The notes under the pieces: generated by a model
The model's database searches: none
Told to the model about the DNA's origin: nothing
Seen by the model: only the letters and a program-made list of their open reading frames with translations
Virus record (IMG/VR): IMGVR_UViG_3300049182_000102
Coordinates: 1-25,896 of that record
DNA: 25,896 nucleotides
Direction: 5' to 3' (one strand)
DNA from: a virus
Taxonomy: Duplodnaviria > Caudoviricetes
Shown: in pieces, positions 13,013 through 25,671 of the stretch
How the letters are laid out: the number at the start of each line of letters is the position of its first letter
Position numbering within the stretch: the stretch's first letter is position 1
Made by a program: the position numbers and the translations under genes

Positions 13013-13042
13013 AGTATATACAGGTCTGTTTAAAGAACGCAA
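13013..13042 (-). promoter_or_regulatory. Sigma70-like promoter for the packaging operon
   Basis: Minus strand TTGCGT-N18-TATACT. Confidence 0.55.
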
Positions 13043-13142
13043 GGAATTTTTATAGGGACGTGCAAAATACACCCTAGGCGCTTGCGGCAAAGCACCTATG
13101 GGTCGTTGTTGCAGTATGGGAAGGGTGTAGGTAGGGTAAGGG

Positions 13143-13169
13143 AAAATAACGCGTTGCCCGCGTTATTTT
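13143..13169. terminator. Hairpin / probable terminator after the VRR-NUC gene
   Basis: Perfect 11-bp stem AAAATAACGCG-TTGCC-CGCGTTATTTT. Confidence 0.65.
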
Positions 13170-13178
13170 AAAGCGCAA

Positions 13179-13574
13179 TTATGCGTCAATAAGGGACATA
13201 TCACTGTCCATGTAGCGAGCGATATAGTCCGCTGCAATCGCCCAATGGTCGGCACATTTATACAAATAGCCTTGAGATACTACAAATTCACCAAACTGTT
13301 TTTGTTCTTTTGATTCTTTACCGCCGGGTTTTTTCATCTCCAAATAGAAACCAGCATACAAGCGTCTTACCGGAATGCAGATGTCTGATACACCAGCTTT
13401 GACACCTTCAGCTCTAAGCTTAGATGCAACAATGATATTCCGCTCACCGCCGTTTGGAATTGCAAACGCCCATTTCAATTCGGGCCAAATGTGGAAATGT
13501 TGAGCCATCCAACAAAACAATGCAGCTTGATGTGAATGCTCTGTGCCCGGTGCAGCAATTTGTTCTGGCGTCAT
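13179..13574 (-). CDS. VRR-NUC family PD-(D/E)xK nuclease
   Basis: EH..Q..LF.W...FAIPNGG.R...A.KL.AEGVKAGVSD...YLEMK...S.EQK.F. ATG 13574 overlaps the upstream TAA. Confidence 0.9.
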   Translation of the reverse strand: MTPEQIAAPGTEHSHQAALFCWMAQHFHIWPELKWAFAIPNGGERNIIVASKLRAEGVKAGVSDICIPVRRLYAGFYLEMKKPGGKESKEQKQFGEFVVSQGYLYKCADHWAIAADYIARYMDSDMSLIDA

Positions 13575-20839: not shown

Positions 20840-20853
20840 GGGGGGGGGGGGGG
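20840..20853 (+). repeat. G14 homopolymer
   Basis: 14 consecutive G in the divergent intergenic region. Confidence 0.9.
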
Positions 20854-21024
20854 TAGGTATTAAAATAGAGGCTATAAGTTTTGCTCGGGCTCTTTATGAT
20901 AGCTGATGGGCAGAGGTGGAAAAGGTCGCTACGGTAGGCCGCGCTTACCTTAGAACAATGGCTTTGAGGCAATTCATTTACGCCCAGAAACATAAACATT
21001 ACCTGCCAGCAAGATGCATACAGT

Positions 21025-21053
21025 TTGCGCAAACGCAAACGCGATGCTATACT
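21025..21053 (+). promoter_or_regulatory. Rightward sigma70-like early promoter
   Basis: TTGCGC-N17-TATACT with an extended -10 TG. The -35 lies inside the palindrome GTTTGCG-CAAA-CGCAAAC. Confidence 0.7.
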
Positions 21054-21162
21054 ATACGCTATACTGTAGTTAAGCAGTAAGCAGTAGCAGTAAGTAACAG
21101 CAGCAAGTAGTAGCAGTACCGTAAAGCAACATTACCTTAACCCAACTTACATAGGTGCAATT

Positions 21163-21636
21163 ATGGCAAAGCAGCAAAACCAACAAGCTAACAACGTTAG
21201 CAACGAGCAAGTAGTTACCGCAGCACAAACCTTGCGTGCGCGCAGGGTAGCAGCAGTGCAACAAGCATTGTATGCACAACGCATTGCAGCAAAGCAAGCT
21301 AAGTACACTGCAGCAGTAGCAGCATATAATGACGCACAGCAAAAGCTTGCACAGCAGGCAGCATTTAATGCAGCAGTTGCTGAGCTGCATGCTAAGTTTG
21401 GTATTGCAGTACAACCCGTTGCACCGCGTGCTAACAGTGCTACTACTGCACCTAGTGCAAGCGCAATAAACGTAAATGGTGTGTTGCTTAAGCCGGTAGC
21501 AGCAGTGCATGCTATTTGCGCAGCTAACCCCAACGCTACACGCAAGCAAGTTATTGCAGCATGCATACAAGCTGGTATTAACCCTGCTACGGCTGCAACG
21601 CAATACGGTGTATACAAGCAAAAGCATGCACAGTAG
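21163..21636 (+). CDS. Ala/Gln-rich basic protein (coiled coil plus small helical, possibly DNA-binding, domain) encoded almost without GA/TC
   Basis: 157 aa; TAGGTG SD; upstream promoter; TAG-TAA stops; C-terminal KPVAAVHAIC...RKQVIAACIQAGINPATAATQY. Confidence 0.8.
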   Translation: MAKQQNQQANNVSNEQVVTAAQTLRARRVAAVQQALYAQRIAAKQAKYTAAVAAYNDAQQKLAQQAAFNAAVAELHAKFGIAVQPVAPRANSATTAPSASAINVNGVLLKPVAAVHAICAANPNATRKQVIAACIQAGINPATAATQYGVYKQKHAQ

Positions 21637-21652
21637 TAATGTGTAACGTATA

Positions 21653-21719
21653 GCACTAGCATACACTGCTAGTGCGTACGTATAAGCATGCTATACTGTA
21701 GTGTGCTTATACGTAGCAC
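21653..21719. other. Tandem hairpins downstream of the 157-aa gene
   Basis: GCACTAGCA/TGCTAGTGC (21653-21675) and TACGTATAAGCA/TGCTTATACGTA (21677-21715). Confidence 0.75.
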
Positions 21720-21748
21720 GTAGTAACCACTTAACTAGGAGGACAATA

Positions 21749-21952: not shown

Positions 21953-22150
21953 ATGAGCAACACTACGAACAACGACGATCTGTACGCAAGCGACACAATA
22001 CCAGATAGCGAGACAGTAACTATTGCCTTCCGTGTACCGAAAGAACTTCGTACTAAATTCAACGAATTGTGCGAATCACGAAACGTTGAAGTTTCCAAAG
22101 TGCTCCGTCGCTTTATCGAGCGCGAAATTAAGGCTGCTCAACAAAGCTGA
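21953..22150 (+). CDS. Ribbon-helix-helix (CopG/Arc-like) DNA-binding protein
   Basis: TVTIAFRVPKELRTKFNELC....VSKVLRRFI pattern. Confidence 0.85.
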   Translation: MSNTTNNDDLYASDTIPDSETVTIAFRVPKELRTKFNELCESRNVEVSKVLRRFIEREIKAAQQS

Positions 22151-22567: not shown

Positions 22568-22759
22568 ATGACAAAAGAGCAAGCAGATGAAATGTACGGT
22601 AAGAAAGTACACGAAGACAAAGAATTCGTTGTTCGTGTAAAAGTCGACCAGCAGGGTAAGCTTAAAGTTTATGCACATCGTGTCTATAATGGAACTGAGC
22701 TTCTCCCGCACGGATACATGTTGGGCATCAATGCTCTGATTATGGAATCGCAGAAGTGA
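22568..22759 (+). CDS. Hypothetical protein
   Basis: 63 aa; TAAGGA SD. Confidence 0.75.
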   Translation: MTKEQADEMYGKKVHEDKEFVVRVKVDQQGKLKVYAHRVYNGTELLPHGYMLGINALIMESQK

Positions 22760-22956
22760 TTGCAACCGTTTTAAAGCGTGGGCATTGCATTTAAACGCTA
22801 GGGTATAGCTAACCCTTACCCTAGCACCGCAAACGCAACCTAGCACCCTTGCCGTAAGTTTAAACCGCATTACCAGCAACACCAAAGCACAACAAACGCA
22901 CCAATGTATTCAAATTGTTGCTTCTTTAATAATTCAATCACGAATGGAGCAAAATC

Positions 22957-23247: not shown

Positions 23248-23390
23248 TGTTTGCGCTAACGCAAACCGTTAGCGCTAGATGTGCTATACAGTAAAGCTTG
23301 CAGTACCAGCTAAACAAAATCACCAGTGTTAGCATCTATCCGGGTGCTAACGCGGGTAATTTCGCCCGGCAACCTGTTAAGGAGTGACAA

Positions 23391-24718: not shown

Positions 24719-24842
24719 GGGTAGTACCTATTGTCAAGTGCTAATTTTTTACCATGCGTGAAGACAAAATTAAACTCACGTGAAAATTAAATTGGTATAT
24801 GGCGCATAAAATATTAAAAGTTATTATATAGGGTAGTACCTA
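24719..24842 (+). repeat. Direct repeat GGGTAGTACCTA x2 in an AT-rich non-coding region
   Basis: Exact 12-mer at 24719-24730 and 24831-24842. Confidence 0.75.
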
Positions 24843-24892
24843 GACTCACTGGGTCCCTTCCCCCCACGGTTTCACGCAGCCAAAAAATTAGC

Positions 24893-24922
24893 TTGCAAGT
24901 TTTAAATACTTAGGTATATAAT
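24893..24922 (+). promoter_or_regulatory. Sigma70-like promoter
   Basis: TTGCAA-N18-TATAAT. Confidence 0.55.
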
Positions 24923-24996
24923 TGTTTTGCCGCATTAAACTGTACATCTGCACAACATTCTTATCTAAGATTTATATCAACTTTCAAACTACCACC

Positions 24997-25671
24997 ATGC
25001 TTAAAGTAGAACAAATTTTTAATCATTATTCCAAAGATACTGCATTCCTCGTCACTAGGTATCCCTCGCTGTTTGGGAAATATTGCAATATTCGTTATTG
25101 GGTGGAATCTCATCCCTATTTCGGCCAAAAACTGCGCCATCAAATACAAGATATTCAAACAAAAGAATGGTATGCTGCAAAAGACTCTTCTGAAGGCTAC
25201 AAAGACATCATTATCCTGCAACGTGTAATTGAAACCGACTACGAAAAGCACCCGTTCCTTGAGTGTGGTCATCTCAAACCGTTCTGCATTAATCTTTCCG
25301 ACCTCAGCTTGAACCATTTGGTTACATTCGCCGAATACTATGTTTTCTCAGAAGCTCAGAAACAAGTAATTATCAAACACTTTAAAAATCATAATGTTGA
25401 TGCTTCTTCTATTAACTGGAAAGATAATTCTATAATAGTTGAACCTGTTCAAGAGAAAAGGGTTCCCAACCCTGTCGGTCGGCCTAAGCTTACGCTTGAA
25501 CAACGGCAACTGAATGCAATCAAAAGAAGTGCGAAATACAAGGAAGATAGCTACTTCAATATCAGCAAAATGAAATTGGAAAATGTAAAAACTTACTTCT
25601 TGCAAATTATTGATTCAGGCGATGTCACGTATGCTGAAGTTTTGAAAAAGTTTCCTGAATTCTTTGAATAA
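24997..25671 (+). CDS. Hypothetical AT-rich gene with a GRP motif
   Basis: Long ORF. ATG 24997 chosen because the track's start overlaps the -10 box. Contains NPVGRPKL; no clear SD. Confidence 0.65.
   Translation: MLKVEQIFNHYSKDTAFLVTRYPSLFGKYCNIRYWVESHPYFGQKLRHQIQDIQTKEWYAAKDSSEGYKDIIILQRVIETDYEKHPFLECGHLKPFCINLSDLSLNHLVTFAEYYVFSEAQKQVIIKHFKNHNVDASSINWKDNSIIVEPVQEKRVPNPVGRPKLTLEQRQLNAIKRSAKYKEDSYFNISKMKLENVKTYFLQIIDSGDVTYAEVLKKFPEFFE

Follow-up and report, generated by a model that had tools for sequence, protein, structure and literature searches.

The purged transcription unit

What keeps a whole transcription unit of a tailed phage nearly free of the dinucleotides GA and TC? The DNA analysed here, hereafter called the window, is a 25,896-nt stretch of such a phage, in which leftward head and terminase genes are separated from rightward small genes by a divergence gap with a poly-G tract. 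The first rightward gene after this non-coding gap forms the purged unit together with its leader and trailer (Table 1). At positions 21045-21738 (694 bp), the composition-based expectation is 50.6 GA and 35.2 TC sites, and we counted 3 and 0, exactly the numbers that the first-pass annotation had given for about 690 bp; both words together amount to 3 sites, as compared to about 86 expected. Base composition provides no explanation, as had been claimed, since AG (71) and CT (35) are abundant. The three GA sites, at 21205, 21331, and 21382, lie in the only Glu, Glu, and Asp codons of the protein. Ser is encoded by AGY alone, Ile by ATT or ATA, and Phe by TTT, the SD sequence is indeed AGGTG, and the stop is a tandem TAG-TAA at 21634-21639. 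The avoidance covers the leader (0 sites versus 13.9 expected) and the trailer with its 3′ hairpins (0 versus 12.3), and it ends as abruptly as described: the first GA after the unit, at 21739, is located within the SD sequence AGGAGG of the next ORF. Among all 23,813 segments of 694 bp outside the unit in the 25.9-kb fragment, the lowest contains 48 GA/TC sites (median, 80).

Could these numbers simply follow from a basic protein rich in Ala and Gln and from a high-expression codon bias? The protein contains 28% Ala and has a pI of 10.3, the capsid gene of the window likewise prefers GCT and GCA, and among homologs the Asp/Glu content covaries only loosely with the purge of the DNA (rho 0.57, p 0.053, n=12). 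However, the 3 sites within the gene are the minimum reachable by any coding of this protein. Random synonymous coding yields 28.9 sites on average (sd 3.9) and shuffling of the gene's own codons yields 14.3±2.7, and under either null none of 5000 simulations reached 3 or fewer, so the depletion survives the modelling of amino-acid composition and codon usage. The junctions between codons are purged too, the observed/expected ratio of the gene is 0.08 against 0.8 for the next-lowest ORF of the window, and no avoidance of GGC or GCC is seen in capsid genes. This junction test and the non-coding flanks of the gene (220 bp; 0 sites versus 26 expected) rule out the by-product explanation, to which we assign practically no weight. 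The unit region is free of substitutions in contigs from four other soil runs, which cover parts of it; therefore, the purged unit is not an assembly artefact. It is a real, conserved, and strongly selected feature.

Table 1. Coordinates of the purged unit, its surroundings, and the GA-poor islands of the window
Feature	Position	Strand	Remarks
Poly-G tract in divergent non-coding gap	20840..20853		similar tracts in relatives
Promoter-like region, TTGCGC-17-TATACT (21025-21053)	21025..21065	+	putative function
Leader without GA, TC, GGC, GCC	21045..21162	+	SD AGGTG at 21153-21157
Gene for 157-aa protein	21163..21636	+	first rightward gene; 3 Asp/Glu
Trailer without GA, TC, GGC, GCC	21637..21738	+	hairpins 21653-21676 and 21678-21716; no U-tract
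Right boundary, SD AGGAGG of next ORF (ATG 21749)	21737..21742	+	normal GA/TC use resumes
GA-poor island upstream of terS	13040..13185		5 sites; one of the six highest gyrase-motif peaks in the window
151-bp island	22759..22909		0 GA/TC; dispersed element family TTTAAACGC...GGGTATAGC...CCCTTGCCG
GA-poor AT-rich stretch upstream of ORF 24997	24780..24950		GA-free island at the same place in G001-G003

Elements within and around the unit

In the promoter-like region, a TG precedes the -10 box, a second TATACT follows at 21060, and TTGA is absent; a consensus promoter scan did not pick up this TTGCGC-17-TATACT region. The upstream sequence ATGCATACAGTTTG..CGCAAA is conserved in the relatives G001 and G004. 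(The terminases of G001-G004 are 81-84% identical to that of the window, and these four genomes are near-complete, with 69-72 kb.) The SD sequence of the gene differs with the strength of the purge: it is mostly AGGTA, AGGTG, or AGGGG in strongly purged relatives, and AGGAG in weakly purged ones. The trailer hairpins have a z-score of -3.35, Rfam gave no match in the trailer, and no intrinsic terminator was found after the gene. A third TATACT, at 21692 in the trailer, is a possible promoter for the downstream genes, and a ribbon-helix-helix (Arc-like) repressor is encoded two genes downstream (21953-22150). The sequence CTTTAACAA, which we take to be boxA-like, occurs with hairpins near the gene or in early regions of G001 (25445), G002 (13241 and 13947), G003 (65872), G005 (38209), and the window (20071, minus strand). 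Nus-type antitermination is one possible function of these elements.

G001, G004, and G005 have poly-G tracts similar to that of the window, at 300-670 bp upstream of the gene, and another lies in the largest GA-poor tract of phage iggy. In the relatives, the poly-G is followed by an ATTTACTTAC(A/G)G motif, present in single copy, that marks the left edge of the purge (G001 24710, G002 12922, G004 233, G005 37255, L017 9681, and L052 28), while the window has only a degenerate copy, at about 20973-20987. Together, poly-G and motif possibly constitute a terminus or packaging signal. G004 has a 159-bp overlap of its ends in the gene region, which may be an assembler overlap. This conserved left edge would suit a tract that is primarily a cis-acting DNA site required to remain unmodified, for terminal-repeat processing, packaging, ejection, or the start of replication, with the gene merely overlapping it, and so would iggy, where a 630-bp GA-poor tract occupies the same divergence point and the gene is absent. 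We nevertheless consider this explanation unlikely. The purge in the window begins at the promoter and stops exactly at the next SD sequence, it tracks the gene through homologs with identities of about 35-55% and lengths of 111-164 aa, and the unit (20988-21738) has no gyrase signature (z -0.8).

The purge among homologs

Does the depletion extend to the relatives of the gene? All eight full-length viral loci, the closest of 22 (L001-L006, L012, and L017), share it, with 3-30 sites versus about 62 per 500 bp. The 14 more distant viral loci, which mostly share the C-terminal domain only, are not depleted. The median Asp+Glu content is 0.7% in 62 full-length homologs, versus 10.9% in 98 other hits with the C-terminal domain. 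The degree of the purge differs: G001, G004, and G005 keep 20-27 GA/TC sites in the gene, the metagenome homologs L052-L054 have 0-2 versus 57-60 expected, and the metagenome loci L055 and L057-L059 have 45-65 (the counts cover seven of the 12 metagenome loci). Free sites on the coding strand number 17/105 for GA and 56/207 for TC (12 loci, among them a mis-called ORF of 35 aa); the purge of GA is no weaker than that of TC. The first-pass annotation had proposed selection on both DNA strands, and this view holds: GA is purged in all contexts on both strands, and the DNA upstream of the gene is included.

The avoided words are the targets of a phage DpdA

A third word, unnoticed in the first-pass annotation, points to the nature of the avoided sites. 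GGC and its complement GCC are also avoided in the unit, including its leader and trailer: GCC appears in none of the 44 Ala codons and GGC in none of the four Gly codons. Of 11 genes compared, the eight with the strongest purge contain 14 GGC/GCC versus 145 (about 10-fold, z -14) under a null constrained to avoid GA and TC, and this word is by far the lowest of the 24 trimer classes compared; in each of the 11 genes, none of 150 simulations was as low. With GA and TC barred in this manner, GGT/ACC shows a 1.3-fold enrichment, while GGG/CCC is neutral. The CAjan study states that the DpdA of this phage modifies GA and GGC, and not GGT (PMC7544227), and the iggy study reports an enzyme restricted to GA, with about 97% of the sites modified (PMC10484667). 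The avoided words, GA plus GGC, are the exact target pair mapped for the CAjan DpdA.

These two enzymes provide a dissociation test, in which we chose tracts on GA/TC alone and then counted GGC. The GA-free tracts of iggy contain 138 GGC versus 138 expected, while those of CAjan contain 8 versus 16.7±2.4. Accordingly, GA-free tracts keep GGC where the enzyme is GA-only, and lose it in CAjan. GGC is found 27 times versus 80 in three gene units, and 88 versus 229 in 23 short islands.

DpdA was detected in four of the five relatives searched (G001-G004), the miss being a 48%-complete fragment, and the fragments L002, L012, and L017 (15-35% completeness) gave no DpdA match. The same four genomes carry preQ0 genes in a Queuovirinae-type module (FolE, QueD, QueE, and QueC), with FolE confirmed by Pfam in G001 only and weak or absent by tblastn elsewhere. 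A phrog_20531 gene lies between queC and queD in G001 (L031:13259-14020) and G004, and an RtcB ligase gene directly follows dpdA in G001 (L031:18023-19210); the modification of the relatives may differ from plain dPreQ0. As for the window itself, the DpdA homolog P0182 is encoded on a 75,802-bp contig, and the window's gene, terS, capsid, and portal proteins are also recorded on 75,802 bp. This coincidence of length is the sole indication, indirect but specific, that the window's phage has DpdA, whose gene would lie outside the 25.9-kb window. P0182 is 67-75% identical to the G001-G004 enzymes and 58% identical to those of CAjan and iggy. In the DpdA tree, which leaves out P0182, G001-G004 group with CAjan, iggy, and VPv62 at 100/100. 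GA/TC-free runs of at least 70 bp occur in the window, in G005, and in seven of the seven genomes of the CAjan/iggy DpdA clade, versus none of four genomes with distant DpdA (three covered over about 50 kb only), in a comparison that represents a single tree branch and has no DpdA-free control. VPv64 was considered as such a control and rejected, as it proved to encode DpdA. All seven genomes reached through loci that share only the C-terminal domain have a DpdA-like match, and none has a GA/TC hole at that gene. A scan of 90 G001 proteins gave no match to an RNA polymerase or sigma factor.

The first-pass annotation had described the gene as a “stealth” gene that must work before or despite a GA/TC-targeting activity, either as an antidote to a host defence or by staying free of a phage-made modification. 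DarT2, CmdT, Dnd, and DddA-type deaminases have GA- or TC-containing targets, and CmdT acts on mRNA. If such an activity on unmodified nucleic acid were the agent, the slightly stronger purge of GA on the coding strand could include an mRNA-level component. However, this model predicts neither the loss of GGC nor the dissociation between iggy and CAjan, and GA is purged in all contexts rather than in one 4-mer. CmdT is further contradicted by the purge of coding-strand TC and of the DNA upstream of the gene. Nor do DarT2 and Dnd fit as agents, because their motifs are not depleted genome-wide in the window and four relatives: the observed/expected ratios are 0.86-0.95 for GATC and 0.98-1.12 for GAAC, and TNTC accounts for a fraction of TC that nearly equals the T frequency. 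We thus regard a toxin of this kind as very improbable. The other half of the “stealth” interpretation, a phage-made GA modification, is strongly supported by the match of the avoided words to the GA and GGC targets of DpdA and by the presence of DpdA in the lineage. Since the avoided words are DpdA targets and the loss of GGC is unpredicted by toxins, the phage's own modification is the most likely object of avoidance. On this sequence evidence, the unit very probably avoids the 7-deazaguanine, predicted to be dPreQ0, that the phage's DpdA would insert.

The encoded protein

The predicted structure consists of a long N-terminal helix (residues 12-79), a linker, a β-hairpin, and a three-helix HTH-like domain (residues 111-155), whose helices have pLDDT values of about 85-89. 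The nearest solved folds of the C-terminal domain are RecX, the MCM winged helix, and homeodomains, at non-significant Z-scores of 4-5 (best, 5.1), and Pfam HTH_23 is detected in one of 61 family members. From the model and the pI of 10.3, we predict that the product is a DNA-binding protein. For the whole protein, Pfam gave no family at the cut-off, PHROGs gave phrog_7864 as the sole match (E 0.002), and a sequence search of the PDB gave none. The model matched nothing in the PDB by Foldseek better than E 1.8, only unnamed phage proteins in BFVD, generic long helices in the VIA structure search (with Z up to 5.1 for the C-terminal domain), and only unnamed viral clusters, under 0.9, in the ESM Atlas. 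With no significant family or fold match, we refrained from naming the protein. The homodimer prediction scored 0.02 and plays no part in the interpretation.

The last 55 residues align with phrog_7864, to which the C-terminal domain is related (probability 96%, E 2e-9). This family, whose gene belongs to the replication module of Queuovirinae-type phages, shares these 55 residues with the purged family, and G001 carries both genes. In contrast, phrog_7864-type genes and other proteins with this domain have ordinary Asp/Glu contents and no gene-wide hole, and the purged family has its own N-terminal helix and the first rightward position. The same C-terminal domain also occurs in tandem within the much larger proteins P0088, P0104, and P0154, one of which appears by eye to be head-morphogenesis-like.

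Short GA/TC-free islands

Each relative contains several GA/TC-free islands of 100-190 bp, some within genes, with motifs in common. In G004, they lie at 2954, 8386, 14121, 25027, 30740, and 37792, often about 5.5-6 kb apart. Many islands retain one conserved TTGCCG, which is a modifiable GGC on the opposite strand. An in-frame island lies within the phrog_7864 gene (G001 49641-49779, G002 40224-40371, and G004 25027-25181), and iggy (39300) and VPv62 (25013) have similar tracts at the corresponding place. The AT-rich stretch at 24780-24950 of the window is possibly an origin or promoter. CAjan has a GA-poor, AT-rich, origin-like region at 50024-50378, with repeated ACCCTATA-like units.

Are these islands sites of DNA gyrase? 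We scored them with the published 130-bp E. coli Topo-Seq matrix (sheet DS10 of PMC6379681). A Mu control peaked at the annotated cut site, with a raw score of 12.5 versus 14.3 published. No other site of the window matches the gyrase motif as well as the 151-bp island at 22759-22909. Its GC-neutral score is 13.8 (z 3.1), a level reached by 0.2% of random windows, and it is likely, judging from its motif, a strong gyrase site. The CAjan island at 25.0 kb and the iggy island at 3.2 kb are the top gyrase-motif sites of their genomes; a further CAjan island lies at about 32.6 kb. In the clade, 16 of the 131 windows in the top 5% of gyrase peaks are GA-poor, versus 37 of 2498 others, an enrichment of about nine-fold whose p-value overstates the significance, as the genomes are related. 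Only 8 of 47 holes score at z of at least 3, and the AT periodicity of 24 islands shows a weak peak (power 2.4) at 11.25 bp, as compared to the gyrase period of about 10.75 bp. The islands suggest a general rule, by which sites handled by host proteins are kept unmodified.

A model for the first gene on modified DNA

We lean, by a modest degree, toward the view that the unit is a bootstrap gene for host RNA polymerase on modified incoming DNA, which would act as follows.

Entry: In the virion, almost every GA and GGC site of the DNA would be modified with dPreQ0.

First transcription: The unmodified promoter, leader, coding region, and trailer would allow fast transcription by host RNA polymerase.

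Opening of the genome: The basic helix-plus-HTH product, as an activator or coating protein, would then bind the phage DNA and open the modified remainder to the host machinery. The dispersed short islands would serve other host proteins alike, gyrase among them.

What could make the modification an obstacle? PMC4838386 reports that 7-ethynyl- and 7-vinyl-deazaguanine nearly abolish transcription by the E. coli and B. subtilis RNA polymerases; the block is at initiation, elongation is not visibly slowed, and the templates are synthetic, fully substituted, and do not contain preQ0. Considering this block and the GA in the consensus -35 sequence TTGACA, we propose that an unmodified first unit would be expressed at once. 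Genome-wide, the avoidance of TTGA in -35 boxes is a noisy signal. As elongation was not slowed in those experiments, the initiation block leaves the purge of the whole coding sequence unexplained. Moreover, the purge of GA on the coding strand is no weaker than that of TC, and a roadblock on the template strand therefore fits poorly. The 20-27 sites retained by G001, G004, and G005 also count against the model. The lack of an elongation block and the purge of coding-strand GA would both suit an agent that reads either strand, for example a modification-dependent nuclease.

This leads to the alternative that self-modification is avoided under pressure from a host modification-dependent type IV nuclease (GmrSD/GrwAB-like). 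The first-entering, unmodified block would survive, and its basic protein would mask the modified sites or inhibit the nuclease. GrwAB restricts Queuovirinae, deazaguanine phages whose escapers mutate dpdA, according to PMC12137116. The purge of both strands and of the whole coding sequence agrees with this alternative, as do the strength of the purge, which differs among relatives as under host-dependent pressure, and iggy, where terminal repeats of 1,091 bp are present and the largest of the GA-poor tracts, including the poly-G, lies at the record end. On the other hand, a length of about 700 bp is short protection against type IV nucleases. In addition, the scattered islands of 100-190 bp, some within genes, and the gyrase-motif enrichment are left unexplained. 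We consider the nuclease, with either mode of action of the protein, a minority explanation of appreciable weight, well behind the bootstrap model. Of the first-pass suggestion that the gene is an antidote to a host defence, modification-dependent restriction is the only form left.

Returning to the bootstrap model, the window (23250-23290) and G001 (24737 and 30492) contain a palindrome, TTTGCG-N4-CGCAAA, in GA-poor DNA, with a TATAC-like box about 20 bp behind it. By its sequence, this palindrome is a candidate site at which the gene product could act, as an operator or an activator site. More tentatively, the genome may be organized in two tiers, an armoured bulk and unmodified islands programmed by the sequence (a bootstrap gene, promoters, and landing sites for gyrase), with the product as a member of a new family of readers of 7-deazaguanine DNA that serves as an adaptor for RNA polymerase or hides the DNA from nucleases; we hold this at somewhat below even. 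With the same reserve, and as part of the two-tier organization, the product family may have dispensed with Asp and Glu so as to escape modification.

Studies of the deazaguanine armour have dealt with the advantage that it gives against nucleases. The present work turns to its cost and to how host enzymes read such DNA: the finding shows where this cost falls and names a candidate solution. A constraint of DNA chemistry appears to set the amino-acid composition of a protein family. Through the dissociation between iggy and CAjan, missing words become a validated read-out of DpdA specificity in uncultured phages, and if the two-tier organization is true, the modification motif of an uncultured phage could be read from its sequence alone. 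The islands can be tested directly, as CAjan deletion mutants of dpdA and queC exist, according to PMC7544227.

Comparison with known systems

The closest known systems are CAjan and iggy. The relatives of the window share with them the gene set and a module order of primase, Sak4, SSB, Cas4 nuclease, helicase, and HTH gene, which continues alike through QueE/C/D, FolE, DpdA, clamp, and polymerase. In the accessible portions of the CAjan and iggy papers, near-complete modification is described as anti-restriction armour, and term searches found no mention of depleted regions (PMC7544227 and PMC10484667). Searches of the available text of 10.1101/2023.04.13.536721 and PMC12210895 likewise gave nothing relevant on unmodifiable genes or islands, and a literature search lying mostly outside subscription papers found no modification-free genes or islands in deazaguanine phages. 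The modification system is known, and the architecture of an unmodifiable gene with islands was not found in this literature. By tblastn, CAjan and iggy gave no match to the purged gene, and DpdA phages can therefore do without it. In contrast, the present group has the whole gene, with a protein composition apparently shaped by motif avoidance, and genomes of 69-76 kb, as compared to about 60 kb in the CAjan/iggy-type Queuovirinae.

The second likeness, to the strong gyrase site (SGS) of phage Mu, holds for the short islands of 100-190 bp and not for the gene unit. These islands resemble the right arm of the SGS (TTTTTAAAACGCGC). However, the SGS contains GA and TC and is single, while the islands are multiple, GA-free, and known from sequence alone.

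Finally, the pre-early region of T5 and the 0.3 region of T7 are first-entering early regions that are free of restriction sites and carry anti-restriction genes. As in those phages, a gene predicted to be expressed first lies here in DNA purged of vulnerable motifs. Unlike in T5 and T7, the words purged here are the probable targets of the phage's own enzyme, and the product is basic and HTH-like, rather than an acidic DNA mimic.
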